Notes under the pieces: model-generated
Databases searched by the model: none
What the model saw: only the letters and a program-made list of their open reading frames with translations
What the model was told of the DNA's origin: nothing
Program-made: the position numbers and the translations under genes
Source of the DNA: Actinomycetes bacterium
Lineage (GTDB): Bacteria; Actinomycetota; CALGFH01
Assembly: GCA_035490035.1 (NCBI GenBank)
Contig: DATHIG010000522.1
Span: forward strand, 1 to 26,669
Direction of reading: 5' to 3'
Length of the DNA: 26,669 bases
Part shown: positions 7,215-26,669 of the stretch, piece after piece
Position numbering within the stretch: the stretch's first letter is position 1
Layout: every line of letters begins with the position of its first letter

Positions 7215-9263
7215 GTGAAGAGCTACCCCACCGACCGCGTCCGCAACATCCTCATCGTTGGTCACGGGGGCGCCGGCAAGACCTCCCTCGTCGAGGCTGT
7301 GTGCCATGCCACCGGGGCCACCAACCGCATCGGCCGGGTCGAGGACGGCACCACCGTGACCGACTTCGAGCCGGAGGAGACCCGCAAGCAGATCTCGGTC
7401 TCCCTGGCCGTCGCCCCGGTCGAGCACGACGGCTTCAAGGTCAACCTGCTCGACGCCCCCGGCTACGCCGACTTCATCGGCGACGTCCGGTCGGCCCTGC
7501 CCGCCGCCGACGCGGTGCTGTTCGTGGTCAGCGCCGTGGACGGGGTCGAGACCCAGACCGAGGTGGTCTGGACGATGGCCGAGGAGCTCGGCCTGCCGCG
7601 GGCCTTCTTCATCAGCAAGCTGGACCGCGACCGGGCCTCCTTCTCCCGCGCCCTCGACGCCATCCAGGCCGCCTTCGGCAAGGCCTGCCCGCCGCTGTAC
7701 CTGCCCATCGGCGAGGAGCACGGCCTCCGCGGCCTTGTCGGCCTGCTGTCGGGCCGCGCGTACACCTACGACGGCGGCGGGCGCTCCGAGGGCGAGGTCC
7801 CGGCCGACCTCACCGACGCCGCCCAGAACCTGCGCGAGCAGCTGATCGAGGCGGTCATCCAGGAGTCCGAGGACGAGGAGCTGATGGACCGCTACCTCGG
7901 CGGGGACGAGATCGCTCCGACGGACCTGATCCCCGACCTGGAGCAGGCGGTGGCCGCCGGGCGGCTGTTCCCGGTGCTGGCCGGGGCGGCCATCCGCAAC
8001 ATCGGCGTCACCGAGCTGCTCGAGGTCTGCACCCAGGCGTTCCCGTCCCCCGCCGAGCGTCCGGCCGTCGAGGGCCGCCGCGCCGACCCGGACGGCCCGC
8101 TGGCCGCCTACGTGTTCAAGACCATCTCCGACCCCTACGTCGGCCGCATGAACCTGTTCCGGGTGGTCTCGGGCACGTTCCTGCCCGACAGCACCGTGTT
8201 CAACGCCACCAAGCGCAAGGACGAGCGGGTCGGCCACCTGCTGACCGTCCGCGGCAAGGCCCAGGAGCCGGCCGAGCGGGTGGTTGCCGGCGACATCGGC
8301 GCGGTGGCCAAGCTCACCGACACCGCCACCGGCGACACCCTGACCGCCAAGGACCACCCGGTGGTGCTGCCGGCCCCGGCCATGCCCGACCCGCTGCTGC
8401 CGATCGCGATCGCGCCCAAGTCGCGCGGGGACGAGGAGAAGCTCTCCTCCGGCCTGGCCAGGACCGAGGCCGAGGACCTGACCCTGCGGGTGGAGCGCAA
8501 CGCCGAGACCCACCAGACGGTCCTGTGGGGCATGGGCGAGAACCACATCGAGGTCACCCTGGAGCGGCTCAAGCGCAAGTACGGCGTCGAGGTCACCTCG
8601 GTCCCGCTGCTGCTGCCCTACAAGGAGACCTTCAAGGCGCCGGTCAAGGCGGTCGGCCGGCACGTGAAGCAGTCGGGCGGCCACGGCCAGTACGCCATCT
8701 GCAACATCGAGGTCGAGCCGCTGCCCCGCGGGAGCGGCTTCGAGTACGTCGACAAGATCTACGGCGGCTCGGTCCCCAACCAGTTCATCCCGTCGGTCGA
8801 GAAGGGCGTGCGCAAGGCGATGGAGGACGGCCTGGTCGCCGGCTATCCCGTGGTCGACGTCCGGGTCACCCTCTACGACGGCAAGTACCACACGGTGGAC
8901 TCCTCGGACATGGCCTTCCAGATCGCCGGCAACCTGGCCCTCAAGGAGGCGGCCGCCCAGGCCGAGATGGTGCTCCTGGAGCCTGTCCTGGAGCTGGAGG
9001 TGCTCATCCCCGACGAGTACGTCGGCGACATCCTCGGCGACCTGTCGTCCCGCCGCGGCCGGGTGGTCGGCACCGACCCGGTCGGCACCGGGCGGACGCT
9101 GGTCCGGGCGACCGCCCCGGAGGCCGAGGTGGTCCGCTACGCCATCGACCTGCGCTCGATGACCAGGGGCAAGGGCTCGTTCGCGCGCCGCTTCTCCCAC
9201 TACGAGGAGCTGCCGTCGCACATGGCCGCCAAGGTGATCGAGGAGGTCAAGTCGCGCAGGTGA
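7215..9263 (+). CDS. fusA2: Elongation factor G-like protein (EF-G2 paralogue)
   Basis: GHGGAGKT P-loop, DAPGYADF, HVKQSGGHGQY, HTVDSSDMAF, LRSMTRGKG. Divergent switch I (RKQISV rather than RGITI) and G4 (SKLD) mark the EF-G2 type. RBS GAGGGAGG upstream of GTG 7215. Confidence 0.92.
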   Translation: MKSYPTDRVRNILIVGHGGAGKTSLVEAVCHATGATNRIGRVEDGTTVTDFEPEETRKQISVSLAVAPVEHDGFKVNLLDAPGYADFIGDVRSALPAADAVLFVVSAVDGVETQTEVVWTMAEELGLPRAFFISKLDRDRASFSRALDAIQAAFGKACPPLYLPIGEEHGLRGLVGLLSGRAYTYDGGGRSEGEVPADLTDAAQNLREQLIEAVIQESEDEELMDRYLGGDEIAPTDLIPDLEQAVAAGRLFPVLAGAAIRNIGVTELLEVCTQAFPSPAERPAVEGRRADPDGPLAAYVFKTISDPYVGRMNLFRVVSGTFLPDSTVFNATKRKDERVGHLLTVRGKAQEPAERVVAGDIGAVAKLTDTATGDTLTAKDHPVVLPAPAMPDPLLPIAIAPKSRGDEEKLSSGLARTEAEDLTLRVERNAETHQTVLWGMGENHIEVTLERLKRKYGVEVTSVPLLLPYKETFKAPVKAVGRHVKQSGGHGQYAICNIEVEPLPRGSGFEYVDKIYGGSVPNQFIPSVEKGVRKAMEDGLVAGYPVVDVRVTLYDGKYHTVDSSDMAFQIAGNLALKEAAAQAEMVLLEPVLELEVLIPDEYVGDILGDLSSRRGRVVGTDPVGTGRTLVRATAPEAEVVRYAIDLRSMTRGKGSFARRFSHYEELPSHMAAKVIEEVKSRR

Positions 9264-10237
9264 GCGGCCAACGGGGGGGTCGGAGTCCGCTGCTGGTCAC
9301 CGGCATGCCGCGCACGGCCACCAGCTGGGTGGGCAAGATGCTGGAGGCGAGCGGCCGGCTGGTGTACGTCAACGAGCCGCTGAACCCGCAGCATCCGCCG
9401 GGGCGCTCGCCCGGGGTGCTGCGGGCCGAGGTCGAGCACGCCTTCCAGTACATCAGCGAGGAGAACGAGCGGGTCTGGCTGCCGGCGTTCCGGGACACGG
9501 TGCGCCTGCGCTTCCACCCGCTGGCCGAGCTGCGACGCAACCACGGCCCCTACGACCTGATGCGCACGGTCAAGTACACCGCCGGCTTCGGGCTGGGCCG
9601 GCTGCGCGGGCGCCGGGCCCTGCTCGACGACCCCTACGCGGTGTTCGCCGCCCCGTGGCTGCACCGCCGGGTCGGCTGCCGGGTGGTGGTCACCGTCCGC
9701 GACCCGGTGGCCACCGTCGCCAGCTGGCGCCGGCTCGGCTGGCGGCCGCGGCTTGGCGAGCTGCTGGCCCAGCCGGCCCTGGTCCGCGACCGCCTGGCCC
9801 GGTTCGTGCCCGAGCTGGAGGCGGCCCGCCGCGACGAGGGCGACGGGGTCGACCAGGCCAGCCTGCTGTGGCGGGTGATCTACGGGACGGTGGCCGCCTA
9901 CCGCGGGGAGATCCCGGGCCTGGAGGTGGTCAGGCACGAGGACCTGTCGGCCGACCCGGTGCCGGCGTTCGCCGGGCTCTACGACCGGCTCGGCCTGCCG
10001 TTCGGACCGGAGGCCGAGCGGGCGATCGTTGCGGCGACCTCCGGCGGGGCGGGCGGTGGCGCGATGCGCTGGTCGGTGTCGGCCGGCGGGGTGTCGAAGA
10101 CGGCCGCCCGCCGCCTCGACAGCCGGGCCAACCTGCAGGTGTGGCGGGAGCGGCTGGCCCCCGAGGAGGTGGCCCGCATCCGCGAGCTGACCGCCGAGGT
10201 CGCCGCCGCCTTCGGCTATGGGAAGGGCAGCCGGTAG
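9260..10237 (+). CDS. Sulfotransferase family protein (325 aa)
   Basis: N-terminal 5'-PSB-like loop LLVTGMPRTATSW, NEPLN, 3'-PB-like VRDPVATVASW, and RHEDL...P. GTG start overlaps the EF-G2 stop (GTGA at 9260-9263). Confidence 0.8.
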   Translation: MSGQRGGRSPLLVTGMPRTATSWVGKMLEASGRLVYVNEPLNPQHPPGRSPGVLRAEVEHAFQYISEENERVWLPAFRDTVRLRFHPLAELRRNHGPYDLMRTVKYTAGFGLGRLRGRRALLDDPYAVFAAPWLHRRVGCRVVVTVRDPVATVASWRRLGWRPRLGELLAQPALVRDRLARFVPELEAARRDEGDGVDQASLLWRVIYGTVAAYRGEIPGLEVVRHEDLSADPVPAFAGLYDRLGLPFGPEAERAIVAATSGGAGGGAMRWSVSAGGVSKTAARRLDSRANLQVWRERLAPEEVARIRELTAEVAAAFGYGKGSR

Positions 10238-12633
10238 GGCCAGCCGGCGAACTGCCGGCCGTCCTCGCCGGCGTCCCAGGGCCAGCATTCGATCACGAAC
10301 TGGCGGCCGGCCTTGTCGACCCGGACAAGGCCGTAGCCTTCGCGCTTGCGGTCGCGGTCGCCGAGCTCGGCGTTGCGCCCGCGCCGCTCGGCCCGGAAGG
10401 CGGCCTTGGTGAGCCGGGGGTTGGCGACGGCCAGGACCCGCATGCGGTTGCCGTAGGCGTCGGTGAAGTCGCCGGTGTCAGGGGTTGGGCCGGGGTTGGG
10501 CAGGCCGCCGGCCGGCTCGAACCAGCGCTGCCAGGCGCTCCCGGCGGCCGGGGCGACGAACTGGACCGGCCCGTCGTCGAACCCGTCGAGGCCGTGCCGG
10601 ACCAGGCTGGCCAGATGCTGGTCGCCCGAGACCAGCAGCGCCCCGGCCCGCTTGACCAGCTCCAGGGCGGTCCGGCGGGCCGCGACGGCCGCGTCGGCGT
10701 CGGAGTCGAACTGGGCCCGGCCGCGCTCGTCGGTCTGCAGGCAGCCCCACAGGGTCTGGGAGAAGCAGATCTTGGGGACGCCGGGGTCGGCGCCGGCCCA
10801 GTCGGCCAGGAACCGCTGCTGGCGGTCCCCGAGGATGGCCAGGTCGTAGCGGTTGCCGGCCGGGTCCCGGTTGTCCTTGTCGCCGGTCTTGAACTTGCGG
10901 TCCTCGACCAGCGCGAAGCCGACCCCGCCGTAACGGAAGGCGCCGTAGTAGACGCCGATGCCCTGGGCCACCGGGGCGGGGTCGTGCGGGTCGGGGTTGT
11001 GGCTGGTCTGGATCCGCTGGACCAGGTTGACCCAGGCGGCCGGGTGGGCGTAGCCGCCGTTGCGGTAGTCGCCGCCCGGAGACGGGGCGCCGGCGTTGCC
11101 CCACAGGTTGGGATGGTAGACGTCGTGGTCGTCGACCAGCACCACCGTCGGCACCGAACGCGTCAGGTCGCGGAACGCCCACAGCCACAGGTACCAGCGG
11201 TACAGCATGTCCAGGGTCGGCTCGGGGCCTCGCTCCTTGGTGGTCGGCCGGTACTCGTAGTACTGGTCGCCGACGGCGGCCAGCAGGTGGGGCCGGCGCC
11301 GGCGCAGGTCGTCGACCAGCTGCCGGTAGGGGAAGTACAGGTTGCGCTCGGTGTACAGGCCGAGCGGCCGCGACCCGGCGATCCCGTCATGGAGGTCGCT
11401 GGCCACGTTGAGCGGCCGGTAGCTGTGAATGGTGCAGTCGAGCACCCCGACCCGCAGCTCGTCGGCAGCCACCGGGTCGGCCGCGATCCTCCCCTGGAAG
11501 CGCTGCTCCTGCGCGGTGCCAGCCCCCCACACGACCCGGTACTCGCGGTCGGCACCGCCGTCCCAGCCGGTCAGCCGGAACACGGCCGCAAACCCCGGCC
11601 CGACCGGCGCCACCGGGCCGATCTCCCATGCCCCGCCTGGCCGGCGCAGCTCCAGCCGCACCTCGCGCGGGTCGGCATCGCCAACGGGCAGGAGCTGGGC
11701 GGTCAGCTTCAGCACCGACCCGTTGAGGGTGTAGAGGGTGCCGAGGACGGGGCCTTCGGCCCGCTCCGGCCGCTCGGCCAGCTTGGATCCGGCGGTCCCG
11801 AGGCCGGCGAACCAGTGCCTGGCGCCACCCTGCTTCTCCCTCGCCGAGGAGACCAGCGCGAGCCCGCCGGCCAGGGTGGCGCCGGACACGCCGTCCAGCC
11901 GGGCGCCGGCCAGCCGGCGGCCGTCCTGGCCGGTGGCCTGCAGGGTCAGCCGGAAGCGCCCGCGAGCGCGCGGGCTGATCTCCAGCACCAGCTCGACGTC
12001 CTCGTCGGTGGTCCGGGGCCGGGGCTGGCCGGACCGGACCGTGCCGGGCATGGGGGCGTAGGCGAACTGCCTGGCCTCGTCGGTGTGGTCCCGGAACCCG
12101 ACCGCCCCGTCGTGGTCGAAGGTGCAAAGGATGCCCCCGCCCTCCCCCGACGCCCCCTGGACGAGGGCGGCCGCCCGATGGTCGAGGCGGCCGGCGCCCG
12201 TCCCGACCAGGAACCCGGAGAAGCCCTCCCCGGCGGACAGGGTCCCGGTGCGGACCCCGATCCTGGCCGGCTGGTCGCCGGCGACCAGCTCCCTGGTGAG
12301 GACGGCCACGGTCCGGGTGCGCATCGGGCCGGTGCCGGCGACACACTCCAGCCGCCCCTGGTGCAGCCGCCAGTCCTGGAGCCGGTTGGCCCAGAAGGCC
12401 GGCCCCAGCCAGGTCCTGGTCCGGTCCGTCGGCAGCTGGCCGACCGCGGCCAGGCCGGCCGGCGGCGCGACCGGGGCCGGCGCCGGCGGCCGTGCCGGCT
12501 GGGCCTCACCCCTGGCCCACGGCCAGAGGCGCCAGGCCAGCAGTCCGGCGACCACGGCCCCGAGACCGGCCTTGAGGAAATTGCGACGTTCGATCCGACC
12601 GGCACCCAAGCGTCGACAACCTCCCGGCTCCAT
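10216..12633 (-). CDS. Tat-exported PhoD-like (alkaline phosphatase D family) metallophosphoesterase with a long N-terminal extension
   Basis: Twin-arginine motif ERRNFLK followed by a hydrophobic stretch. Metallophosphoesterase-type motifs GDQYYE, DDHDVY and LVSGDQH. Confidence 0.75.
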   Translation of the reverse strand: MEPGGCRRLGAGRIERRNFLKAGLGAVVAGLLAWRLWPWARGEAQPARPPAPAPVAPPAGLAAVGQLPTDRTRTWLGPAFWANRLQDWRLHQGRLECVAGTGPMRTRTVAVLTRELVAGDQPARIGVRTGTLSAGEGFSGFLVGTGAGRLDHRAAALVQGASGEGGGILCTFDHDGAVGFRDHTDEARQFAYAPMPGTVRSGQPRPRTTDEDVELVLEISPRARGRFRLTLQATGQDGRRLAGARLDGVSGATLAGGLALVSSAREKQGGARHWFAGLGTAGSKLAERPERAEGPVLGTLYTLNGSVLKLTAQLLPVGDADPREVRLELRRPGGAWEIGPVAPVGPGFAAVFRLTGWDGGADREYRVVWGAGTAQEQRFQGRIAADPVAADELRVGVLDCTIHSYRPLNVASDLHDGIAGSRPLGLYTERNLYFPYRQLVDDLRRRRPHLLAAVGDQYYEYRPTTKERGPEPTLDMLYRWYLWLWAFRDLTRSVPTVVLVDDHDVYHPNLWGNAGAPSPGGDYRNGGYAHPAAWVNLVQRIQTSHNPDPHDPAPVAQGIGVYYGAFRYGGVGFALVEDRKFKTGDKDNRDPAGNRYDLAILGDRQQRFLADWAGADPGVPKICFSQTLWGCLQTDERGRAQFDSDADAAVAARRTALELVKRAGALLVSGDQHLASLVRHGLDGFDDGPVQFVAPAAGSAWQRWFEPAGGLPNPGPTPDTGDFTDAYGNRMRVLAVANPRLTKAAFRAERRGRNAELGDRDRKREGYGLVRVDKAGRQFVIECWPWDAGEDGRQFAGWPYRLPFP

Positions 12634-12645
12634 GGAAAGCGCCGG

Positions 12646-13344
12646 CTAGCGGTCCTCGATCGTGACCAGCCCCTGGCGCACGGCCAGCGCGGCCGCCTCG
12701 AGCTTGGAGTGTACGCCCAGCTTGACCAGCACGTTCTGCACGTGGGTGCGGACCGTGTTGAGCGACAGGTAGCAGGCCTCGGCGATGCGGCGGTTGGAGT
12801 AGCCGCGGGCCAGCAGGGCCAGGATCTGGCGCTCCCGGTCCGACAGGCTGCGCAGCAGCAGCTCGGCGTGAGCGTCCCGCGCCGGTGGGGCCTGGGGCCG
12901 GCCGGCCGAGGGTGCCGGGGCGGACACCGCCATCGCGGCCAGGGTCCCGGCGGAGCCGGCGAAGGCGACCCGGTGGCCGGCGGCCACCATCCGGATGGCC
13001 TCGGCCAGCTCGCGGCCGGAGGCGGCCCGGCTCAAGCCGGCGTGGCCGCCCGGGTCGGGACCGCCCGCGGCCTGGCGCCGGAGGTCCTCGGCCAGCAGCA
13101 GCACCCGGGTCCCCGGCCGGGCCTGGCCGACCAGCCGGAGCAGCTCGGTGACCTCTGGTCCCGGCATCTGGGTGTCGACCACCAGCACGTCGGGCTGGTG
13201 GGCGAGCACCGCCTGCAGCGCCGAGGCGCCGTCGCCGGCCAGGGCGACCACCTCGAGGTCGTCCTCGGCCGACAGCACCATGCCGAGGCCCTCGAGGAAC
13301 GCGTCATGGTCGTCGGCCAGCACGACCCGGACCGGTTGCCGCAT
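12646..13344 (-). CDS. NarL/LuxR-family response regulator (atypical receiver)
   Basis: REC start VVLADDH, acceptor VVD, C-terminal LuxR HTH LSDRERQILALLARGYSNRRIA...TVRTHVQNVLVKLGVHSKLEAA. Confidence 0.92.
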   Translation of the reverse strand: MRQPVRVVLADDHDAFLEGLGMVLSAEDDLEVVALAGDGASALQAVLAHQPDVLVVDTQMPGPEVTELLRLVGQARPGTRVLLLAEDLRRQAAGGPDPGGHAGLSRAASGRELAEAIRMVAAGHRVAFAGSAGTLAAMAVSAPAPSAGRPQAPPARDAHAELLLRSLSDRERQILALLARGYSNRRIAEACYLSLNTVRTHVQNVLVKLGVHSKLEAAALAVRQGLVTIEDR

Positions 13345-13368
13345 TCCCCTTCCCCCCGAGAAGCGCGA

Positions 13369-14019
13369 TCAGGTGTTGACGGCAGTGTCCAGCGGATCTG
13401 GCTCGGCGGCGATCCCCGGCCGCAGCGGCAGGCTGAGCCCGACGACGGTGCCGCCACCCTGGCGCTCGGCCACCCAGGACCGCCCGCCGGCGTCGTCGAG
13501 GAACCGGCGGACCACGAACAGCCCGATGCCGTGCCCGCCGTCGCTGGCCTCGGCGACGCCGCGGTCGGCGACGATCACCTCGACCTGGCCGGCCGCCGGG
13601 TCGGCACGGACACCGACCTCGACGCCGTCCGGCCCGCCGTGCACGGCCGCGTTGTCGATCAGGTTCTCGACCACCTGGCGGAGCATGGTGGCGCTGGCCT
13701 CGACCTCGACCTCGACCTGGACGTCGGCCTCGACCCGCACCGACGCCCCGCGGGCGACCCCAACGGTCCTGGCCGCCGACCGCACCGCTGCGACCACGTC
13801 GGCGGCGGTGGCGGTGGCGGCGGGACGGTCGCGGCCCGGGTCGCCGAGCAGCTCGCCGGCCAGGTCGTCGAGGTCGTCGATCTCGCCGAGGAGCAGGTCG
13901 ATCATGGATGCCGGGTCGAGCCCCCGGCCGCGGAGCATGGCGATCGCCTCGCCGACGACCCGCACCGCCGCCATCCGCCGCCGCAGCTCGTGGGCGAGCA
14001 TGGCAACGTCGCTTGGCAT
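13369..14019 (-). CDS. Sensor-less histidine kinase-like protein (HisKA + HATPase_c)
   Basis: H-box AHELRR within the first ten residues, N-box LRQVVENLIDNAAVHG, degenerate G1 (ADRG), G2 GHGIGLFVV. No TM or sensor domain. Start at ATG 14019 is uncertain; the ORF extends to 14088. Confidence 0.8.
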   Translation of the reverse strand: MPSDVAMLAHELRRRMAAVRVVGEAIAMLRGRGLDPASMIDLLLGEIDDLDDLAGELLGDPGRDRPAATATAADVVAAVRSAARTVGVARGASVRVEADVQVEVEVEASATMLRQVVENLIDNAAVHGGPDGVEVGVRADPAAGQVEVIVADRGVAEASDGGHGIGLFVVRRFLDDAGGRSWVAERQGGGTVVGLSLPLRPGIAAEPDPLDTAVNT

Positions 14020-14090
14020 ATCCTGCCGCTTGCCTCCCTGAGCACGCGCAGCTTTCGGCGTGCATGCCGGCCGACACGCATGAGCCACTG

Positions 14091-14346: not shown

Positions 14347-14390
14347 CAGCCGGAAGGCTCGCGAGAGCTCGCTCGGATGACGGGGACACT

Positions 14391-15062
14391 ATGGCACGGG
14401 TGGTGCTGGCAGATTCGCAGCCGCTGTTCAACGAGGCGCTGGAGGCGCTGTTCTCCCGCGATGAGGCGCATCAGGTGATCGGCCGCTGCTCGTCGGCCGA
14501 CGACGCCTTCACCGTCGTCTCCACCCTCCGCCCTGACCTGGTGCTGGTCGACGCCGCCCTCGGCCTGGAAGGCTCGCCGAACCTGGTCGTGCGCATGCTC
14601 GAAGCCTCCCCCGGGGCTCGGGTGATCGTGCTCGGCGACGACCACGACGCCGACCTGCTGCTGGCCGCCATCCGGGCCGGCGCCGCCGGCGTGGTCGGCA
14701 AGACCTACGGCGCCAGCACGGTGCTGCGGGTGGCCGGGGCGGTGCTGGGCGGCGAGGGAGCCGTCCCCCGGAGCATGCTGCTCGAGCTGGCCAGGCGCAT
14801 CGTCTCCAAGGAGCGGGCGGCCGACTCGCCGCTGTCGCGACTCTCCCCCCGCGAGCGTCAGGTGCTCGCCCTGCTCAGCCGGGGCTGGGACAACGCCCGT
14901 ATCGGCCGTGACCTGTTCATCAGCCAGCACACCGTCCGCACCCACATCCAGAACATTCTGGAGAAGCTGGGGATGCACTCCAAGCTCGAGGCCGCCACCT
15001 TCGCGATGCAGCGATCGATGGAGCTGGAGCTGGCCCCCGGCGGCGTCGGGTCGGACCATTGA
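14391..15062 (+). CDS. NarL/LuxR-family response regulator (atypical receiver)
   Basis: VVLADSQ, LVLVD acceptor, GVVGK, LuxR HTH LSPRERQVLALLSRGWDNARIG...TVRTHIQNILEKLGMHSKLEAA. Confidence 0.92.
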   Translation: MARVVLADSQPLFNEALEALFSRDEAHQVIGRCSSADDAFTVVSTLRPDLVLVDAALGLEGSPNLVVRMLEASPGARVIVLGDDHDADLLLAAIRAGAAGVVGKTYGASTVLRVAGAVLGGEGAVPRSMLLELARRIVSKERAADSPLSRLSPRERQVLALLSRGWDNARIGRDLFISQHTVRTHIQNILEKLGMHSKLEAATFAMQRSMELELAPGGVGSDH

Positions 15063-15102
15063 TCTCGGAACCCCAACTCGCAACCCAAAAGGAGCCGGCA
15101 CT

Positions 15103-16269
15103 GTGACGATCAGCGAGCGGATGTTGACCGAACCGCGCGGCGGCCTGCCGCACGGTGGGCAACTGGTCGACCGGCGCCTCGACGCCGACGAGGCGACCGA
15201 CCTGGCGTCCGGCCCGCTGTCTTCCCTGCCGCTGACCGCAGCCGAGGCGGCCGACCTGCGAGCGCTGGCCACCGGCGCCTACAGCCCGCTCACCGGCTTC
15301 ATGGGCGCCAAGGAGCACGAGTCGGTCACCGAGTCGATGCGCCTGCCCGACGGCACCCTCTGGCCGATCCCGGTCTGCCTGGGCGTCCCCGACGGCGTCC
15401 GGGTCGACTCGGGCCGCCTGGCCCTCCGGGGCGAGCGGGACGAGCTGCTGGGCCTGCTCGAGGTCGAGGAGGTGTTCGAGCGCGACCGCGCCGGCGAGGC
15501 CGAGCTGGTCTACGGCACCACCGACCCGGCCCACCCTGGCGTCGCCCGCGTCCTCGGCTCGCCCTCCCGCGCCGTCGCCGGCCCCATCCAGGCGGTGGTC
15601 GAGCCGCTGGACGGGCCGGTGGGCGCCCGCGCCCTCACGCCGCTGGAGACAAGGGCGGCGTTCCAGGCCAGGGGCTGGCGCACGGTGGTCGGCTTCCAGA
15701 CCCGCAACCCGGTCCACCGGGCCCACGAATATCTCATGAAGTGTGCGCTGGAGATGGTCGACGGGCTGCTGCTGCACCCGCTGGTCGGCCCGACCAAGGA
15801 GGGCGATGTCCCCGCCGAGGTCCGCATGCGGGCCTATGAGGCGGTGCTCGGCTACTTCCCACCCGAGCGGGTCCTGCTGGCCGCCCTGGTCGCCCCCATG
15901 CGCTACGCCGGCCCTCGCGAGGCGGTGCTGCACGCGCTGGTGCGCAAGAACTACGGCTGCACCCATTTCATCGTCGGCCGCGACCACGCCGGCGTCGGCA
16001 GCTACTACGGGACCTTCGAGGCCCAGGAGCTGATCGCCTCGCTGCCCTCCGACGACCTGGGCATCACCCCGCTGCGCTTCGACAACGCCTTCTACTGCCG
16101 GCGCTGCCTGGCCATGGCCACCGGCAAGACCTGCCCGCACCCCGACGAGGACCACGTCGCGCTGTCCGGCACCCAGGTCCGGTCGATGCTGGCCGCCGGC
16201 CAGCTGCCCCCGTCCGAATTCTCAAGGGCCGAGGTCGCCGAGCTGCTGATCGAGGCCTACCGTTCCTGA
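15103..16269 (+). CDS. sat: Sulfate adenylyltransferase (single-subunit ATP sulfurylase)
   Basis: GAYSPLTGFM, FQTRNPVHRAHE, MRYAGPREA, VGRDHAG and SGTQVR motifs. RBS AAGGAG at 15089-15094 before GTG 15103. Confidence 0.96.
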   Translation: MTISERMLTEPRGGLPHGGQLVDRRLDADEATDLASGPLSSLPLTAAEAADLRALATGAYSPLTGFMGAKEHESVTESMRLPDGTLWPIPVCLGVPDGVRVDSGRLALRGERDELLGLLEVEEVFERDRAGEAELVYGTTDPAHPGVARVLGSPSRAVAGPIQAVVEPLDGPVGARALTPLETRAAFQARGWRTVVGFQTRNPVHRAHEYLMKCALEMVDGLLLHPLVGPTKEGDVPAEVRMRAYEAVLGYFPPERVLLAALVAPMRYAGPREAVLHALVRKNYGCTHFIVGRDHAGVGSYYGTFEAQELIASLPSDDLGITPLRFDNAFYCRRCLAMATGKTCPHPDEDHVALSGTQVRSMLAAGQLPPSEFSRAEVAELLIEAYRS

Positions 16270-17759: not shown

Positions 17760-17806
17760 GCTCCGCGACGCATAGGCCCAAGCAAGACAAGAGGGGGATA
17801 TCACCC

Positions 17807-18964: not shown

Positions 18965-18970
18965 GGCCAA

Positions 18971-18991: not shown

Positions 18992-19039
18992 CATGCGACG
19001 CGGCTGGTCAACCTGGTGATCGACGCCACGGGCGAGGCG

Positions 19040-19081: not shown

Positions 19082-19108
19082 TCTTGCAACAACGCGTGGG
19101 GACCCGTG

Positions 19109-19357
19109 ATGGCATCGACAACAGTTCGCGTGACCGAGCACACCCATGAGCTTCTGCGCGAGCTGGCCGCGGCCACCGGCGAGCCGTTGCAGCGGGTTCT
19201 GGAGGAGGCGGTCGAGCGCTACCGCCGCGAGCGGTTCTTCGCCGATCTCCACGCCGCCTATGCACGTCTTGCGGGCGACCGGGCCGCCTGGGCAGCGGAA
19301 CTGGACGAGCGGGCAGAGCTGGACGGCACGCTCGGCGACGGGCTCCGTGATCTGTGA
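19109..19357 (+). CDS. Antitoxin of a type II TA pair (ribbon-helix-helix-like N-terminus, acidic C-terminus)
   Basis: MASTTVRVTEHTHELLRELA...QRVLEEAVERY strand-helix-helix pattern, acidic tail ELDERAELDGTLGDGL. Stop overlaps the toxin start (GTGA). Confidence 0.8.
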   Translation: MASTTVRVTEHTHELLRELAAATGEPLQRVLEEAVERYRRERFFADLHAAYARLAGDRAAWAAELDERAELDGTLGDGLRDL

Positions 19358-19698
19358 GGACCATCCGCCGAGGTGAGGTCTGGCTTGCCGACCTGAACCC
19401 CTCCCGTGGGCATGAGCAGACCGGCCAGCGTCCCGTCCTGGTGGTGTCCGCCGACCCGTTCAACCAGAGTCCGGCCGGGCTGGTCAGCGCTGTTCCGTTC
19501 ACCACCCGCAACCGGGGAATCCCGACCCACATCGAGGTTCGCCCACCGGACGGTGGGCTGCGCGACCTCAGCTTCGCCATGTGCGAGCAGCTCCGCGCGC
19601 TGGCCGCTGACCGACTCGCTTCCCATCCGTTCGGTACCGTGTCTCCCGCCGTGCTAGGTGCCGTCGAGGACCGCCTGCGGCTCCTGCTGGTGCTCTGA
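19354..19698 (+). CDS. mazF: PemK/MazF-family endoribonuclease toxin
   Basis: RRGEVWLADLNPSRGHEQTGQRPVLVVS, VPFTT and SFAMCEQLRAL motifs. Confidence 0.93.
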   Translation: MRTIRRGEVWLADLNPSRGHEQTGQRPVLVVSADPFNQSPAGLVSAVPFTTRNRGIPTHIEVRPPDGGLRDLSFAMCEQLRALAADRLASHPFGTVSPAVLGAVEDRLRLLLVL

Positions 19699-19791
19699 CG
19701 AGCCATGAGCGAGCAGGCGCCGTCCGGCGGGGGCGCTTCGACCCGAGAGGGCGCCCGGGCCCGGGCTGGGTGGGGCTTGAGGCCGCGCCAA

Positions 19792-19896
19792 CGGGGTCAG
19801 GGCGGGCCTTGCCGAAGTACATGAGCTCCCACAGCGTTTCGTCCGTGTGGCGCTCCACCAGGTCCTCGCCCTGGTCGTGCCAGGCGGGGTCAGGGC
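19792..19896. repeat. 12-bp direct repeat CGGGGTCAGGGC flanking a coding-like fragment
   Basis: Exact copies at 19792-19803 and 19885-19896 (93-nt period). The second copy contains the MFS stop codon. Confidence 0.5.
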
Positions 19897-21158: not shown

Positions 21159-21215
21159 ACCGGACATTCTCGCGTGCCGGTCCGACACCGGCCAGGCGGA
21201 TGGGGCAGCGGCCGG

Positions 21216-22547
21216 TTACGGGGTCAGGCGGTTGGGGCCGCGGAAGAACAGGGTGGCCTCGCGGATGGAGGGGAGGTCCAGGAGCTTCATCAGCAGGCGG
21301 CTGACGCCGATGCCGAGGCCCCCGTGCGGGGGGCAGCCGTAGCGGAAGCAGCTCACGTAGTGGCTGATCGGCTCCAGCGGGATGCCCTTCTCGGCGGCCT
21401 GGGCGACCAGGACCTCGTAGCGATGCTCCCGCTGGGCGCCGGTGGTCACCTCCAGGCCGTTCCAGATGAGGTCGAAGCTGCTGGTGACCGTCGGGTCGCC
21501 GTCGGGACGCATGTGGTAGAAGGGCCGCACCGACACCGGGTAGTCGGTGACGAACACGAACTGGTGCCCGAACTTGTCGGCGACCAGCTTCGAGAGCAGG
21601 CGCTCGCCCTCGCCGTCGAGGTCTTCCGAGGCCCGCTCGCCCGGCTGCCAGCCGGCCTGGAACAGCTGCTCGCGCGCCTCGGCCAGCGGCAGGCGCGGGA
21701 ACGGTGTCGCCGGGACCGCGAGGCTGACGCCGAAGGTCTCCTCGATCTCCTTGCCGAGGCTGTCGCGCACCGCCGCGATCGCGGCGGCCAGCATCTCCTC
21801 TTCCATGCGCATCACGTCGTCGACCGAGTCGATCCAGGCCATCTCCAGGTCCAGCCCGGTGAACTCGGTCGAGTGGCGGGAGGTGAAGCTGGGCTCGGCC
21901 CGGAACACCGGCCCGACCTCCATCACCCGGTCGAAGCCGGCGGCGATCGCCATCTGCTTGTAGAACTGCGGCGACTGGGCCAGGTAGGCCGACGACCCGA
22001 AGTAGTCGACCCGGAACACCTCGGCGCCCGACTCCGACGCCGCCCCCATCAGCTTGGGGGTGTGCAGCTCGGTGAACCGCCGTGCCCGGAGGAAGGACCG
22101 CATGCTCTGCTCGAACAGGTCGCCGACGACGAAGGTCAGGTGCTGCCGGGGAGCCCGCAGATCCAGGAACCGCCAGTCCAGCCGGAGGTCGATGTTGCTG
22201 GTCTCGGCGATCGGCAGCGGCTGCTCGGCGGTCGAGACCAGGTCGACCGAGTCGACCAGCACCTCGATCCCGCCGAGCTTCACCTGCGGCGCGTCGACGA
22301 CCCGGCCGGTCAGGGCGACCGCCGACCCGACCGTGAGGGCGTCCAGCTGCTGGTCGAGGCCGGGGCGCAGCTCGCGCCGGTTGGTGAGCTGCACCGCGCC
22401 GGTCTCGTCACGAAGGACCACGAACTGCATGCGCCGTTGCAGCCGGAGCGTCTGCACCCAGCCACACACCCGCACCTGGTCGCCGACCCGTGACCCGAGC
22501 TGCCCGACCAGCACGCGTGCTGGCTCCTGCCGGCCTTCGTCACCCAT
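21216..22547 (-). CDS. aspS: Archaeal/eukaryal-type (short, GAD-less) aspartyl-tRNA synthetase
   Basis: OB-fold start (GWVQ...QFVVLRD), RLDWRFLDLR, YLAQSPQFYKQM, motif 2 FRAE..FTSRHSTEF, GAQRE, motif 3 PPHGGLGIGVSRL. 443 aa. RBS GAAGGAG. Confidence 0.92.
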   Translation of the reverse strand: MGDEGRQEPARVLVGQLGSRVGDQVRVCGWVQTLRLQRRMQFVVLRDETGAVQLTNRRELRPGLDQQLDALTVGSAVALTGRVVDAPQVKLGGIEVLVDSVDLVSTAEQPLPIAETSNIDLRLDWRFLDLRAPRQHLTFVVGDLFEQSMRSFLRARRFTELHTPKLMGAASESGAEVFRVDYFGSSAYLAQSPQFYKQMAIAAGFDRVMEVGPVFRAEPSFTSRHSTEFTGLDLEMAWIDSVDDVMRMEEEMLAAAIAAVRDSLGKEIEETFGVSLAVPATPFPRLPLAEAREQLFQAGWQPGERASEDLDGEGERLLSKLVADKFGHQFVFVTDYPVSVRPFYHMRPDGDPTVTSSFDLIWNGLEVTTGAQREHRYEVLVAQAAEKGIPLEPISHYVSCFRYGCPPHGGLGIGVSRLLMKLLDLPSIREATLFFRGPNRLTP

Positions 22548-22608
22548 GAACGCTCCTTCACCGCGACCGAGCGAGGGCCAAGCATATCGGTGGTGGCGGG
22601 AGGCGCGG

Positions 22609-23406
22609 TCAGGGGATGCGGCGGGAGCCGACCGGGAAAGGGTCGGCACGGTCCAGGTCGAGCAGGCTGTAGCCGAAGTGGTTGGCGGCCGGCTCGTGGC
22701 GGCGGCACAGCGACCGGAAGCGCTCGCGGCGCCATCCCCTGGCCTCCGACAGCTCCTGCCACTGCCGTTGGTAGGTGGCGCTGCGGCGGGTGTCGATCCC
22801 GCCGGCTGGGATCGGCCCCTCCAGCTCCAGGAAGGCGGCGATCTCGGCCAGGGCCCGCTCCGGCTCCCCCACCAGCTGCTCGTACTTGACCACCAGCAGG
22901 TGGCGCAGGAAGGCGGCGTCCTCCTCGAACAGCCGGTGGGCGGCGAACCAGTGGTCGAGCAGGTCCCCGACCGAGCGGAGCCTCACCCACTTGCGGGTGG
23001 AGAGGCTGACGATCGCCGGGTGCCTGACCACCATCACGAAGCGGGCGTCGGGGAAGGCGGCCTGCAGGAACCGGCCCATCAGCAGGTTGGGCGGGGACTT
23101 CTCGACCAGGACCGGCTTGCCCAGGTCCCAGTGAGGCCGCCACTGCTCCGGCAGACGGGACGCGGTGTCCGGGGTGAGCAGCGGCGACGCCTCGGTGAGG
23201 TGGGAGGCTGGCCGCAGCGCGAACCGGCCAGGCCCGCCGTTGGCCTTGGCCGGAGGGTAGACGGTCTGGAGGTGCTGGCCCTCGTCCTCCTCCACGCCGG
23301 TGCCGTGGAAGCCGCTCACCTGCGGGTGCGCGGCCAGGCAGCGGGTCAGCGGGGTGGTGCCGCTGCGGTGCAGCCCGCCCACGAACACCAGCCGATGGTC
23401 GTTCAT
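22609..23406 (-). CDS. Sulfotransferase family protein (265 aa)
   Basis: FVGGLHRSGTT 5'-PSB loop, EKSPPN, VVRHP (3'-PB) and KYEQLV..P. ATG overlaps the upstream stop (ATGA). Confidence 0.88.
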   Translation of the reverse strand: MNDHRLVFVGGLHRSGTTPLTRCLAAHPQVSGFHGTGVEEDEGQHLQTVYPPAKANGGPGRFALRPASHLTEASPLLTPDTASRLPEQWRPHWDLGKPVLVEKSPPNLLMGRFLQAAFPDARFVMVVRHPAIVSLSTRKWVRLRSVGDLLDHWFAAHRLFEEDAAFLRHLLVVKYEQLVGEPERALAEIAAFLELEGPIPAGGIDTRRSATYQRQWQELSEARGWRRERFRSLCRRHEPAANHFGYSLLDLDRADPFPVGSRRIP

Positions 23407-24737
23407 CCGGTCCCCCCTTGTCGCAGGCGCCGCCCGAGCACCTCGAGCAGGGCGGCGCCGACCGTGTCCGGCCGGCCGGTCACCGCCGAGACCTCGGCCT
23501 CGGCGGCCCGGCAGAGCCGCTCCAGCAGGTACAGGGTGAGCAGCAGCTCCTCGACCCCGGCCTGCTGGCCCAGCTCGGCCAGCCGCGGCGCCGCCCGGTC
23601 GCGGCCGGTGGCCGCCGCCGCGGCCGGCGGCTGCCCGAGGCCCTGCAGGGCGGTCTGGTAGCCGAAATGGAGCAGGTCGAAGCCGAGCGGCACGCCGTCG
23701 CCGCTGCGCTCCCAGTCCCAGACCAGCAGCCGGCCAGGGGTCGAGCGCAGGTTCCATGGGCCCCAGTCGCCATGCCAGGTGGCGAAGGCGAGCCGGGTCG
23801 CCGCCTGCCCAGCGAGCGCCTCGATGGTGGCGTCGAGGGCGGTCGCGGCCCGGCCGTCGGTCTGCGTCCCGGCGGGCCCGACGTCCATGGCCTGCCGGAT
23901 GGGGGCCAGGCGCCGGCGCAGGCCGGCCCACCACGGGCTCTCCCCCAGCGGCATGACCTCGACCCCGCCGAGGGCGGCGACCTCCCTGGAGACGGCCGGC
24001 GGCGGCATGGCGTAGCGGCGGCCGCGGCGCCACAGCCGGTGGGGCAGGGCCGAGCTGATGGTGATCTCCAGCCCATGCCACTGGCCCTGGTGGAGCAGGC
24101 CGGGGGCGGTGAAGCTGCGCGGGCTGGCCTCGGCCAGCCGCCGCAGCATGTCGGCCTCGGCGCGGACCAGGCGGCGGGTCAGGTCGTTCCAGCCGACCTT
24201 CATGTAGCCGACCGGCTGGCCGCCGCGCCCGATGAGCTGCACGACCGGCTTGCGGTTGGGCCGCACCGGGCCCAGGACGATCGCGGCCGCCAGGTCGGGC
24301 CGGCCGAGCGCCGTGGCCACGTGGTCGCCGAGCAGGGTCCCCTCGGCCGGCCCGACGGCACCGAACAGCAGGCCGCGGCGGCGCAGCCACCACTGCAGGG
24401 CGCCGCTGCGCAGGCCGAGGCCGACCGCGGCCTTGGCCAGCCGGGCCCGCTGGGTCATGCCGTCGCTGTACTGGCGGACCGCCTCGGCGGCGGCCCGCCG
24501 CGAGGTCAGCGGCACCAGCACCCGCGGGCGCCGCAGGTCGGGCAGGACACCCCAGCCGAGCGACGACGGGACGCCGACCACCACCTCGACGCGGGGGGTC
24601 GGCCCCCACAGCACCTCGGCCAGCCATTCCAGCTCCCGGGCGCCGCCCCGGGGCCCGGCTCCGGGCGGGCGCCCCCCGCCGGCGGTCGGGGGGGGTTCGG
24701 GGAGGGCGGGCCGGCCCGCCCGACGGGTCGGGCTCAC
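23403..24737 (-). CDS. Protein-kinase-like (APH/choline-kinase-fold) phosphotransferase-like protein
   Basis: YMKVGW (ATP-binding Lys), AEAD (alphaC Glu), Brenner-like WHGDWGPWN and VWDWE. GTG 24737 overlaps the sulfatase stop. The N-terminal ~35 aa are low complexity, so the start is uncertain. Confidence 0.7.
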   Translation of the reverse strand: MSPTRRAGRPALPEPPPTAGGGRPPGAGPRGGARELEWLAEVLWGPTPRVEVVVGVPSSLGWGVLPDLRRPRVLVPLTSRRAAAEAVRQYSDGMTQRARLAKAAVGLGLRSGALQWWLRRRGLLFGAVGPAEGTLLGDHVATALGRPDLAAAIVLGPVRPNRKPVVQLIGRGGQPVGYMKVGWNDLTRRLVRAEADMLRRLAEASPRSFTAPGLLHQGQWHGLEITISSALPHRLWRRGRRYAMPPPAVSREVAALGGVEVMPLGESPWWAGLRRRLAPIRQAMDVGPAGTQTDGRAATALDATIEALAGQAATRLAFATWHGDWGPWNLRSTPGRLLVWDWERSGDGVPLGFDLLHFGYQTALQGLGQPPAAAAATGRDRAAPRLAELGQQAGVEELLLTLYLLERLCRAAEAEVSAVTGRPDTVGAALLEVLGRRLRQGGTG

Positions 24738-26125
24738 GGGCAGCCCGCCCCCTTGCAGGCACGGGCCGCGGCCAGGTCGGCGCCCAGCGTCGCTGGCGGG
24801 TCGTTGGCCGGGTCGTCGTCGGCGAGCAGATTTCGCTCCATGCCAGGGTCGCCGGCCAGGTCGTAGAACTCCCGGTAGACGCCGGGCCCGCCCGGCTGGT
24901 CGTAGTTCTCGATGTACTGCCAGGTGGCGGTGCGCAGGGCGGCCCAGTCGCGGATCCCAGGGGCGTTGGCCGGGTCGCGCCAGTACTCGGCCAGCAGCCG
25001 CTCGCGCCGCCCGCCGTCCAGCAGGGAGCGGCCGTCGACGGTGTCGTCGGGGTCGGGCCGGACGCCGGCCGCGGCCAGCACCGTCGGCTTGATGTCGATG
25101 GTGGCGACCAGGCGGTCGTCGACCGCGCCGGCGGGGAGCCGTCCCGGCCAGCGGGCCAGGAACGGGACCTTGATCGACTCGGTGTAGGGCACGAACTTGC
25201 CCACGTGACGGTGCTCCCCCCAGGAGTAGCCGTTGTCGGAGAGGAAGAAGACCAGCGTGTCGTCCAGCTCGCCGGTCTCCTGGAGCCTGCTCAGCACCCG
25301 GTCGACCAGGTCGTCGACCGACAGCAGGGTGCGCAGCTGGCCGGTCCGCAGCGCCGCCACCGTCGGCCCGGCCACCGGCGCCCGGTCGCGCAGGTAGCGG
25401 GGCTTGCCGGCGACGTCGGGCCCGCCAGCGGTCCCGGCCCGGCCCAGCGCCGGGAAGGTCGCCTTGGCGTACCTCGACTCCGGCACCCTTGGGTCGTGGG
25501 GGGCGAACGGGGCCAGGTAGGCGAACCAGGGCCGGGCGTCGTCGCGCTCGAACTCGGCCAGGTAGGCGAGGGCCTGGTCGCCGATGAAGCTGGTCGAGTA
25601 GGTGGGGACCCGGCGAACCTTGCCGTCCACCTGCCACACCTGGTTGTAGTAGCCGCCGTTGGCCAGTGCCCAGCGGTCGAAGAACGGCGGCGGGCGCCGC
25701 AGCGGCCAGCGGTTGAGGTACTTGCCGGCCATGGCCGTGCGATAGCCGGCGTCCCTGAGGTAGCGCTGCAGGGTGGTCCGCTGGTCGAGCCGGTCGGCCA
25801 GCCGCTGCCGGAGCACGCCGTGGTTGTGGACGTAGCGGCCGCTCAGGATCGACGCCCGCGACGGGCAGCAGCTCGGGGTGGTGGCGTACCCCTGGGTGTA
25901 GGTGACCCCGGCCTCGGCCAGCCAGCGCCGCGTCTTGGGCATCGCCTGGATGGTCTCGGCCCTGGCGTCGTCGGTCACCAGCACCAGCACGTTCGGCCGG
26001 TTGCCGTTCCCGGTCCCGCCGGGACCGGCCACGGCCCCGCCGGAGCGCCTCGAGGCGGTGAACGCCACCACGGCCAGGACCAGGGCGGCGACCACCACCC
26101 CGACCAGGACCAGCCGGCCGCCCAT
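24734..26125 (-). CDS. Formylglycine-dependent sulfatase, GNS/Sulf-like, with N-terminal membrane anchor
   Basis: PNVLVLVTDD, TTPSCCPSRASILSGRYVHNHGV (CxPxR), AGKYLN, PHDP, FLSDNG and GKFVPY. N-terminal hydrophobic helix. Start overlaps the flippase stop (ATG 26125 or GTG 26128). Confidence 0.92.
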   Translation of the reverse strand: MGGRLVLVGVVVAALVLAVVAFTASRRSGGAVAGPGGTGNGNRPNVLVLVTDDARAETIQAMPKTRRWLAEAGVTYTQGYATTPSCCPSRASILSGRYVHNHGVLRQRLADRLDQRTTLQRYLRDAGYRTAMAGKYLNRWPLRRPPPFFDRWALANGGYYNQVWQVDGKVRRVPTYSTSFIGDQALAYLAEFERDDARPWFAYLAPFAPHDPRVPESRYAKATFPALGRAGTAGGPDVAGKPRYLRDRAPVAGPTVAALRTGQLRTLLSVDDLVDRVLSRLQETGELDDTLVFFLSDNGYSWGEHRHVGKFVPYTESIKVPFLARWPGRLPAGAVDDRLVATIDIKPTVLAAAGVRPDPDDTVDGRSLLDGGRRERLLAEYWRDPANAPGIRDWAALRTATWQYIENYDQPGGPGVYREFYDLAGDPGMERNLLADDDPANDPPATLGADLAAARACKGAGCP

Positions 26126-26667
26126 CACGCCTCCGCACCGGGGGGGTTCGGGGTGGCGGCGCCGGCTCCCGGACCCATCGATCGGGACCGGCCGGCCCGC
26201 CGGCGCAGGATGTCGCGGAGGGCCTCCCACTCCAGGCGGTCCCGGAAGCGCCAGAGCAGGACCGCGTACAGGCCGACGCCGGCGGCGGCGTAGGCCACCA
26301 ACCCGGCGACGGTCGGGCCGAGCAGGGCCCGGATGCCCAGCCCGACCAGCCCGAAGCTGACCGCCGACAGCACCGCGGCAACGCCGGTCCCCTGCCCGAA
26401 CGGGTGCAGGCCCATCGACCGCCACACCTGGACCAGCGGGAGCAGATTGTTGAGCAGGATGCCGACCGCGAACGCCACCGCCGCCCCGGCCAGGCCGTAC
26501 CGGGGGGTGAGGGCGAAGTTGAGGGCCAGGTTGGCGCCGAGGGAGACCAGGGTGTTGAACAGGTTCCAGGAGCTGCGGCCGCCCATCAGCAGCACCACGT
26601 CGACCGGCCCGACCGCGGTGGCGACCAGCATGGTGGCCGACAGGATGACCAGCACCACCTGGCCGTC
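26125..26667 (-). CDS. Wzx-like polysaccharide flippase (C-terminal part; truncated by the window edge)
   Basis: GPVDVVLLMGGRS..NL.N.L...GANLALNFALTPRYGLAGAAVA matches the C-terminal pattern of polysaccharide biosynthesis exporters. Frame is open to the window end. Confidence 0.85.
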   Translation of the reverse strand, partial: DGQVVLVILSATMLVATAVGPVDVVLLMGGRSSWNLFNTLVSLGANLALNFALTPRYGLAGAAVAFAVGILLNNLLPLVQVWRSMGLHPFGQGTGVAAVLSAVSFGLVGLGIRALLGPTVAGLVAYAAAGVGLYAVLLWRFRDRLEWEALRDILRRRAGRSRSMGPGAGAATPNPPGAEA

Positions 26668-26669
26668 GG

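Follow-up and report, generated by a model that had tools for sequence, protein, structure and literature searches.

The closest characterised relative of the locus reported here is the wps-1 cluster of Actinoplanes missouriensis (AMIS_7280-7380, encoding WpsA-K; Tezuka and Ohnishi, Appl Environ Microbiol 2026, PMC13390465). It encodes a family 2 glycosyltransferase (GT2; WpsA), a sulfotransferase (WpsB), a GT26 protein (WpsC), a DUF4262 protein (WpsD), a family 26 glycoside hydrolase (GH26; WpsE), a methyltransferase (WpsF), the flippase Wzx (WpsG), a heparan-sulfate-type sulfotransferase (WpsH), a protein-kinase-like protein (WpsI), the polymerase Wzy (WpsJ) and Wzz (WpsK). All wps-1 genes but wpsD are needed for normal sporangium formation. 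Deletions of wpsG, wpsH, wpsI, wpsJ and wpsK all impair it, as does deletion of AMIS_7390, a gene of the family of ATP sulfurylase (Sat)/adenosine 5'-phosphosulfate (APS) kinase adjoining wps-1, which causes a severe defect left unexplained by the authors (PMC13390465). Loss of the sulfate donor 3'-phosphoadenosine 5'-phosphosulfate (PAPS) for WpsB and WpsH would explain this defect. Here we describe a window of 26,669 nucleotides, the entire contig DATHIG010000522.1 (C522) of an uncultured soil actinomycete. We consider it likely that this window holds the distal half of a locus for a Wzx/Wzy-dependent heteropolysaccharide that undergoes sulfation in the cytoplasm, together with a private sulfate-donor module. 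The cluster is a member of the wps-1-type family and a richer variant of it, not a new system.

Both clusters are Wzx/Wzy/Wzz-dependent and share two sulfotransferase families (ST_a, the type of WpsH, and ST_b, the type of WpsB), the kinase family of WpsI, GH26 and GT2 proteins and a neighbouring Sat/APS-kinase gene. Sequences of A. missouriensis 431 did not occur among the recovered loci, and the link rests on the loci of Actinoplanes and related Micromonosporaceae together with the published gene order. Indeed, loci of Actinoplanes, Symbioplanes and Dactylosporangium show the published order Sat/CysC-Wzz-Wzy-kinase-sulfotransferase-Wzx-methyltransferase-GH26-GT26-sulfotransferase-GT2, a fused PUA_2/ATP-sulfurylase/APS-kinase gene abuts the Wzz gene in loci L061, L042, L072 and L039, and the kinase of the window is 36-40% identical to the Actinoplanes-type proteins. 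The lineage of the window differs from wps-1 by a formylglycine sulfatase within the operon and ST1 and ST2 as additional sulfotransferases, by sat and cysC as two genes with a PHP phosphatase gene behind them where wps-1 has a single fused Sat/CysC, and by an Alg13/Alg14 pair plus a Bac_transf priming transferase instead of GT26. Methyltransferase and DUF4262 genes were not seen in it.

Other clusters for sulfated bacterial polysaccharides are described from cyanobacteria (synechan, PMC8205485) and marine Gammaproteobacteria. Among bacterial systems for a sulfated exopolysaccharide (EPS), synechan (xss) of Synechocystis sp. PCC 6803 has the best chemical proof and, like the window, it has a Wzx/Wzy-type EPS cluster, several sulfotransferases and its own regulators (PMC8205485). 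Nevertheless, it belongs to another phylum and is likened by gene content, not by orthology. A term search of the synechan paper turned up no sulfatase or PAPS-synthesis gene for the cluster, apart from one title in its reference list (PMC8205485), and the pairing of kinase and sulfotransferase is an actinobacterial feature. An earlier note on this DNA, made from the sequence alone, had placed the best-known sulfated EPS pathways in cyanobacteria (synechan/xss) and knew of few characterised actinobacterial equivalents. With wps-1 as a closer characterised relative than synechan, the novelty of the locus is lower than that note assumed.

The window is the longest contig of a metagenome-assembled genome (MAG) of 4.35 Mb in 899 contigs. 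At 74% GC many spurious open reading frames (ORFs) arise, and genes were therefore picked by third-position GC (GC3 frame analysis) and named with Pfam and NCBIfam profiles. Since the window is a whole contig, the genes beyond position 26669 were read in relatives and on other contigs of the same assembly. All genes named in the earlier note were found again, including the 4-nt overlaps of the minus-strand operon, which we read directly in the sequence (GTGA at 26125-26128, GTGA at 24734-24737 and ATGA at 23403-23406). The genes assigned to the system are:

9260-10237, plus strand: sulfotransferase ST1 (Sulfotransfer_3, 39.3 bits, cut-off 27)
14391-15062, plus strand: RR2, a LuxR/NarL-type response regulator (Response_reg and GerE)
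14908-16269 (ORF), plus strand: sat, ATP sulfurylase (PUA_2 and ATP-sulfurylase, 311 bits); the true start is probably the ATG near 15121 (gene 15121-16269)
16328-16873, plus strand: cysC, APS kinase (APS_kinase, 203 bits)
16878-17759, plus strand: PHP-family phosphoesterase, starting 4 nt past the cysC stop codon
17807-18964, plus strand: secreted propeller protein (DUF5122 and Rax2 propeller matches, signal-peptide-like N-terminus)
22609-23406, minus strand: sulfotransferase ST2 (Sulfotransfer_3, 99 bits, cut-off 27)
23403-24737, minus strand: kinase-like protein (aminoglycoside phosphotransferase family, APH, E 7e-4, 19.9 bits against a gathering threshold of 23.2; HGDxxxxN and DWE motifs)
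24734-26128, minus strand: sulfatase (PF00884, 166 bits, and SGSH_C)
26125 to beyond 26669, minus strand: C-terminal 180 amino acids of the flippase Wzx, cut by the contig end

By itself the flippase fragment matches no Pfam family. It is 94% identical to residues 395-573 of a 573-amino-acid protein with a Polysacc_synt domain (46 bits) in G009, a genome of the same genus, and the flippase proposed in the earlier note holds as Wzx solely via this full-length orthologue, the fragment alone not being recognisable. The G009 contig (41.9 kb) is collinear with the whole window (92-97% amino acid identity) and extends past its end. Upstream of wzx it carries, in order, genes for ST_a (Sulfotransfer_1), a Wzy_C polymerase, a 695-amino-acid GH26-like protein, GT2, ST_b (Sulfotransfer_3), a Glyco_tran_28_C/Alg14 pair, a Bac_transf priming transferase with CoA_binding_3, and Wzz with a P-loop, ParA-type BY-kinase. 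HIT and ThrRS genes come next and mark the cluster edge. Wzx, Wzy and Wzz/BY-kinase thus stand in one locus in G009, together with the glycosyltransferases and the priming transferase, as expected for the glycan-assembly genes that were to be sought upstream of the flippase. Most of them were also recovered from the assembly of the window itself, at 84-98% identity to G009: contig C738 carries Wzz, the priming transferase, Alg14, Alg13, ST_b, GT2 and the first 427 residues of the GH26-like protein, and contig C228 the N-terminus of Wzz, HIT and ThrRS. Orthologues of ST_a and Wzy were not found in this assembly, where the best match is a sulfotransferase on contig C5 with 33% identity to ST_a, and we therefore place both genes in an assembly gap. 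The sulfotransferase gene on C5 lies at the end of a 2.9-kb contig (G000:C5:2368-2937) and may belong to another sulfation locus. Judged from these predicted proteins, the Wzx/Wzy pathway is complete and comprises three glycosyltransferase activities as well as four sulfotransferases and a kinase, its completeness being seen in relatives.

These genes suggest the following course of synthesis. The Bac_transf primer, the Alg13/Alg14-type glycosyltransferase and GT2 would assemble a short repeat, probably of three sugars, on undecaprenyl phosphate. Up to four PAPS-dependent sulfotransferases (ST1 and ST2 in the window, ST_a and ST_b just beyond it) would decorate the unit, on which the APH-fold kinase would also act. 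Wzx would then flip the unit, Wzy polymerise it, and Wzz/BY-kinase set the chain length. A second copy of Sat and CysC would supply PAPS under a LuxR-type regulator, the PHP paralogue would clear the inhibitory by-product 3'-phosphoadenosine 5'-phosphate (pAp), and a membrane-anchored formylglycine sulfatase, probably with the GH26-like protein, would trim or turn over the exported polymer. The identities of the genes, their coupling in the operon, the full pathway in relatives, the duplicated sat-cysC and the linkage across genomes are observed, whereas the acceptor, sulfation as such, the substrate of the kinase and the topology and role of the sulfatase are inferred from them.

A search of species-representative genomes with a profile of the kinase-like protein found relatives in the genomes of at least 188 actinobacterial species. 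Micromonosporaceae (Actinoplanes, Dactylosporangium, Micromonospora, Asanoa, Virgisporangium), Streptosporangiaceae, Glycomycetaceae, Thermomonosporaceae, Jiangellales, Acidimicrobiales, Gaiellaceae and Thermoleophilia supply the best 79 loci; cultured carriers of the kinase family include Actinoplanes, Dactylosporangium, Planobispora, Nonomuraea, Glycomyces and Stackebrandtia. Neighbours were counted up to 10 kb from the kinase gene in these 79 loci, which gave ST_a in 72, Wzy in 61, Wzx in 57, GT2 in 48, Wzz in 45, ST_b in 43, GH26 in 41, CysC in 19, Sat in 15, ST2 in 9, the sulfatase in 5 and the PHP protein in 4. The kinase serves as the marker of a conserved cassette, in which it is joined by a heparan-sulfate-like sulfotransferase, Wzx, Wzy, GH26 and GT2. 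Homologues of the propeller protein are a recurrent neighbour of this cassette (33 loci), and the sulfatase, the PHP protein and ST2 are essentially limited to the window's own family. Among 10 genomes of the genus, kin that are not independent and allow a descriptive, not a statistical comparison, the same 8 that carry the kinase cassette also carry the PHP orthologue, and G001 (100% complete) and G007 (63% complete) yielded neither. The copy number of ATP sulfurylase over 41 relatives was of no use for co-occurrence owing to the incompleteness of MAGs. The co-occurrence of the modules proposed in the earlier note is thus borne out within the genus, and across the 79 loci the kinase is linked to sulfotransferases, Wzx and Wzy and often to CysC/Sat.

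In 47 homologues of the kinase-like protein K180, E194, H322-G-D324, N329 and D341-x-E343 are invariant. An AlphaFold2 model (pLDDT 86, pTM 0.86), which includes an extra N-terminal domain, was compared by Foldseek and matched, at E about 1e-6, fructosamine-3-kinase (FN3K), APH(3'), APH(4), homoserine kinase II and glucosamine kinase, and also maltokinase, with probability 1.00 and a target TM score of 0.55-0.62 for the top matches (FN3K, APH, homoserine kinase). The profile gave a marginal match to FN3K alone among the sequences of the Protein Data Bank (PDB; E 0.12). According to the model the protein has an APH/fructosamine-kinase fold, and the matched folds all belong to small-molecule or sugar hydroxyl kinases. 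Its gene directly adjoins that of ST_a in 55 of the 79 loci and that of ST2 in 6 more; in the genus of the window it adjoins ST2, and ST_a lies two genes upstream. Four loci of a single clade (58-95% mutual identity; two labelled Acidimicrobiales) encode kinase and ST_a as one fused protein of 713-728 amino acids (L063:33-2171, L073:9959-12139, L078:2128-4308 and L093:9977-12160), which is Rosetta-stone evidence of joint action. The kinase is as much a core component as the sulfotransferase, and because it is core and fused to a sulfotransferase in one clade, the polymer is probably phosphorylated too.

The sulfotransferases of the window both contain PAPS-binding motifs, PRTATS and RDPVATVAS (RDPxxxxxS) in ST1 and HRSGTT and RHPAIVSLS (RHPxxxxxS) in ST2, which correspond to the 5'-PSB and 3'-PB motifs. 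ST_a resembles heparan sulfate 3-O-sulfotransferases (3-OST) and N-deacetylase/N-sulfotransferases (NDST) and matches the former at E 2.5e-24. The position of sulfotransferases inside a Wzx/Wzy operon argues for a glycan acceptor, not a lipid or a small molecule, which agrees with the polysaccharide that the earlier note had favoured. In an alternative explanation the polysaccharide is made, but one or both sulfotransferases of the window act on protein tyrosine, a glycolipid or a small molecule, so that they sulfate the glycan little or not at all. The sole solved relatives of ST2 are indeed tyrosylprotein sulfotransferases (E 1e-8) and not carbohydrate enzymes, the GTG start codon of ST1 overlaps the TGA stop codon of EF-G2 (GTGA) rather than a glycan gene, and the secreted propeller protein, a constant neighbour, could be a protein substrate. 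However, Sulfotransfer_3 is a broad family in which a similarity of this size leaves the acceptor undefined, ST2 is translationally coupled to kinase, sulfatase and Wzx, and homologues of ST1 and ST2 lie within wps-like clusters of unrelated lineages (L083, L056, L035, L060), those of ST1 in L035 and L060 with 51-53% identity. ST1 stands beside EF-G2 in the relatives G009 and G005 as well; since EF-G2 flanks pgsA1 also in relatives without ST1, this coupling is probably an accident of insertion. We therefore consider a non-glycan acceptor improbable and retain sulfation of the repeat unit as the preferred explanation.

The sulfatase carries the S1 signature CCPSRASILSGR at residues 87-98, with the CxPxR formylglycine motif, and a gene for the formylglycine-generating enzyme (PF03781, 255 bits) is present on contig C170. 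Its best PDB matches are 7EBP, 9S8Y and 5G2V (N-acetylglucosamine-6-sulfatase). It shares with S1 sulfatases such as BT4656 (5G2V) the CxPxR motif, a sulfatase fold to which the SGSH_C region is added, and a membrane or signal helix at the N-terminus. Nevertheless, the known bacterial S1 sulfatases are encoded in degradative loci, whereas this one is coupled to flippase, kinase and sulfotransferase. For the extracellular desulfation suggested in the earlier note, an extracytoplasmic location of the protein is indicated solely by a single N-terminal hydrophobic helix, around which the charges are ambiguous. A functional analogy is given by human SULF1/2, which edit sulfate on heparan sulfate; in a similar way the protein could edit the sulfate of a glycan after export.

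A further alternative, to which we give slightly less credit than to a non-glycan acceptor, is that the protein is not a sulfate ester hydrolase but adds sulfate or acts on a phosphate ester, as formylglycine phosphonate monoester hydrolases do. The sulfatase-fold proteins Agl30/Agl31 are needed for sulfation of the Halobacterium N-glycan (PMC11980604), the gene lies in a biosynthetic operon beside a kinase, and its PDB matches include phosphonate monoester hydrolases. The complete S1 signature together with the presence of the formylglycine-generating enzyme speaks against this, as do the best solved relatives, which are carbohydrate 6-O-sulfatases. In addition, four canonical PAPS sulfotransferases already cover the addition of sulfate, and the gene, found in 5 of the 79 loci, is a lineage-specific insertion and not part of the cassette core. 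Trimming of the exported polymer by a sulfatase thus remains the favoured role.

The sat gene product scores above the NCBIfam cut-off for sulfate adenylyltransferase (481 bits against 387). APS/PAPS reductase and sulfite reductase genes are absent from the window, as the earlier note had observed, and are encoded elsewhere in the genome: a separate operon on contig C872 comprises cysC2, sat2, a gene for a PAPS-reductase-family protein (cysH), sulfite reductase and an F420-type Fe-S protein. CysC and Sat of the window are 60% and 68% identical to these paralogues. Because this assimilatory operon has its own sat and cysC, the copies in the window are most likely a second set dedicated to sulfate-donor supply, which strengthens the proposal that their PAPS is used for transfer and not for cysteine synthesis. 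The order RR2-sat-cysC is kept in G009, G005, G020 and G014.

The PHP protein aligns end to end with Cv1693 of Chromobacterium violaceum (PDB 2YB1, its best match, E 8e-40), and the metal-ligand positions (HxH, E, H, AHP, GSDxH) are conserved. Cv1693 hydrolyses pAp (PMC8268124). The highest NCBIfam score is that for 3',5'-nucleoside bisphosphate phosphatase, at 189 bits below the equivalog cut-off of 400 and followed by RNase RNM (179 bits, cut-off 375). The protein is thus equally near to RNase RNM/RNase AM-type exoribonucleases, and we regard it as a candidate pAp phosphatase of the Cv1693/TrpH subfamily with predicted activity. The removal of pAp assumed in the earlier note agrees with this subfamily similarity and with the place of the gene after cysC; the scores stay short of an equivalog assignment. 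A PHP paralogue of about 40% identity occurs in nearly all relatives and on contig C626 of the same genome, and the orthologue of high identity occurs only in genomes that have the locus. A role as a CpsB/YwqE-type phosphotyrosine phosphatase for the BY-kinase was considered and rejected, as no such PDB match was found at E<1e-3, the best ones being Cv1693 and TrpH, and the gene is linked with cysC rather than Wzz. In the long-read MAG G005 (G005:C19, L013-L015) frame changes or a TAG stop codon interrupt the genes for the PHP protein, the propeller protein and the sulfatase, which reflects either decay of accessory modules or long-read indel errors.

It is very unlikely that sat-cysC-PHP has its task in general sulfur assimilation or RNA metabolism and is a chance neighbour of the glycan genes. 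About 4.8 kb of unrelated genes (mazEF, MFS, AspRS) do separate the propeller gene, which follows sat-cysC-PHP, from ST2, and PHP enzymes of the TrpH/YciV type are also 5'-3' exoribonucleases. Nevertheless, the full assimilatory operon on C872 and the housekeeping PHP paralogue on C626 leave these tasks to other genes, and RR2-sat-cysC(-PHP) travels with glycan clusters in G009, G005, G013, G020 and G014. Moreover, the fused Sat/CysC of Micromonosporaceae abuts Wzz, and its deletion in A. missouriensis gives a sporangium defect like that of the wps-1 deletions (PMC13390465).

The chromosomal site of the locus provides further evidence on the sulfate-donor module. The genes from ST1 through Wzz, which span about 28 kb in G009, are bounded by EF-G2/pgsA1-acyltransferase-pimA on one side and HIT/thrS on the other. 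In G016, which belongs to another genus of the family and in which the kinase was not found, thrS-HIT and EF-G2-pgsA1 are 2.4 kb apart. At the same site G014 carries RR2, a BY-kinase-like protein and sat-cysC-PHP; behind them stands another kind of Wzx/Wzy cluster, with genes for epimerase, Wzy, GT2, DegT aminotransferase, Polysacc_synt_2 dehydratase, GT4, a small Bac_transf protein and Wzx. Since the PAPS module heads a different glycan cluster there, sat-cysC-PHP is tied to glycans and not to assimilation. The locus resembles a surface-glycan island of variable content that keeps to one chromosomal site and includes a conserved PAPS module. A 361-amino-acid protein of the G014 cluster was considered as a hidden sulfotransferase and discarded; it is lipoprotein-like and has no similarity to sulfotransferases.

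The interval 9260-26669, which the earlier note had treated as one system, holds the genes of the system and bystanders as well. The left part of the window contains, in order, SecDF, TrkA_C, Na/H antiporter, M48 peptidase and hypothetical genes, followed by conserved phosphatidylinositol-mannoside genes (a GT4 pimA-like gene, an acyltransferase and a CDP-alcohol phosphatidyltransferase). The remaining genes are:

7158-9263, plus strand: EF-G2, its stop codon overlapped by the ST1 start
10216-12633, minus strand: twin-arginine translocation (TAT) signal protein of 805 amino acids with a weak PhoD-like phosphatase domain
12646-13344 and 13369-14088, both minus strand: pair of a LuxR-type regulator and a short histidine kinase
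19106-19698: mazEF pair, a mazE-like gene (83 amino acids) and mazF (PemK_toxin, 93 bits), with overlapping start and stop codons
between mazEF and AspRS: major facilitator superfamily (MFS) transporter
21216-22649, minus strand: nondiscriminating aspartyl-tRNA synthetase (AspRS; NCBIfam aspartate--tRNA(Asn) ligase, 438- and 428-amino-acid models, 458 bits against 353)

The PhoD-like TAT gene, flanked by ST1 and the two-component genes, is conserved in G009 but missing from G005. The short histidine kinase (239 amino acids) has HATPase_c and no detectable sensor or transmembrane region, and the pair is divergent from RR2-sat-cysC. The mazEF genes are not in the syntenic G009 locus, where the adjoining MFS gene is truncated. 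The longest AspRS ORF shares 41 nt with the 3' end of ST2; G009 has the gene, and the G005 locus lacks it. Clusters of the ascamycin/nucleocidin type combine PAPS synthesis, sulfotransferases and a sulfatase, and a class II aminoacyl-tRNA synthetase and an MFS exporter lie directly downstream of ST2, but a small-molecule cluster for an inhibitor of the aminoacyl-sulfamoyl-adenosine type, with the synthetase as self-resistance, was rejected as barely conceivable, since the synthetase is an ordinary nondiscriminating AspRS, both genes are missing from the G005 locus, nucleoside-tailoring genes are not present, and the operon runs on into Wzx, Wzy and glycosyltransferase genes.

For the sulfated heteropolysaccharide proposed here, several points weigh on the other side. 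No member of the cluster family has been chemically shown to make a sulfated polysaccharide, and the authors of the wps-1 study state that production of such a polymer awaits verification (PMC13390465). About 4.3 kb is unassembled between C738 and the window, and the C-terminus of the GH26-like protein, Wzy, ST_a and the N-terminus of Wzx are predicted for it from relatives. The modules are separable, since the kinase cassette occurs without the PHP orthologue in G015, G019 and G020 and sat-cysC-PHP without the kinase in G012, G014 and G018. To these are added the tyrosylprotein sulfotransferases as solved relatives of ST2, the coupling of ST1 to EF-G2 and the PHP scores below the equivalog cut-off. 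A more far-reaching possibility, in which the pair of kinase and heparan-sulfate-like sulfotransferase would put phosphate and sulfate on the same repeat and a cell-surface sulfatase would edit the pattern after export, is put forward as a speculative idea that we judge unlikely, although less so than any of the alternatives above. If true, such phosphate/sulfate writing and editing would be a bacterial counterpart of animal glycosaminoglycan logic (NDST/OST, the xylose kinase FAM20B and extracellular SULFs), and three glycosyltransferase activities facing four sulfotransferases and a kinase would imply a polymer charge density rivalling heparin.

Sulfated polysaccharides are a textbook trait of animals and algae, and for bacteria the chemical proof comes mainly from cyanobacteria and a few Gram-negatives of marine origin. 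The lineage of the window has the most self-contained version of the wps-1-type system so far, with duplicated donor synthesis, by-product removal and a sulfatase in the export operon. Distinctive of this lineage are the operon-embedded sulfatase, the PHP paralogue, the duplicated sat-cysC and four sulfotransferases against three glycosyltransferase activities; at the level of the family it is the pairing and fusion of kinase and sulfotransferase. The spread of the locus family over the genomes of at least 188 species implies the production of sulfated polysaccharides by many soil actinomycetes. If the chemistry is confirmed, these clusters would be a source of new glycosaminoglycan-like polymers and enzymes.

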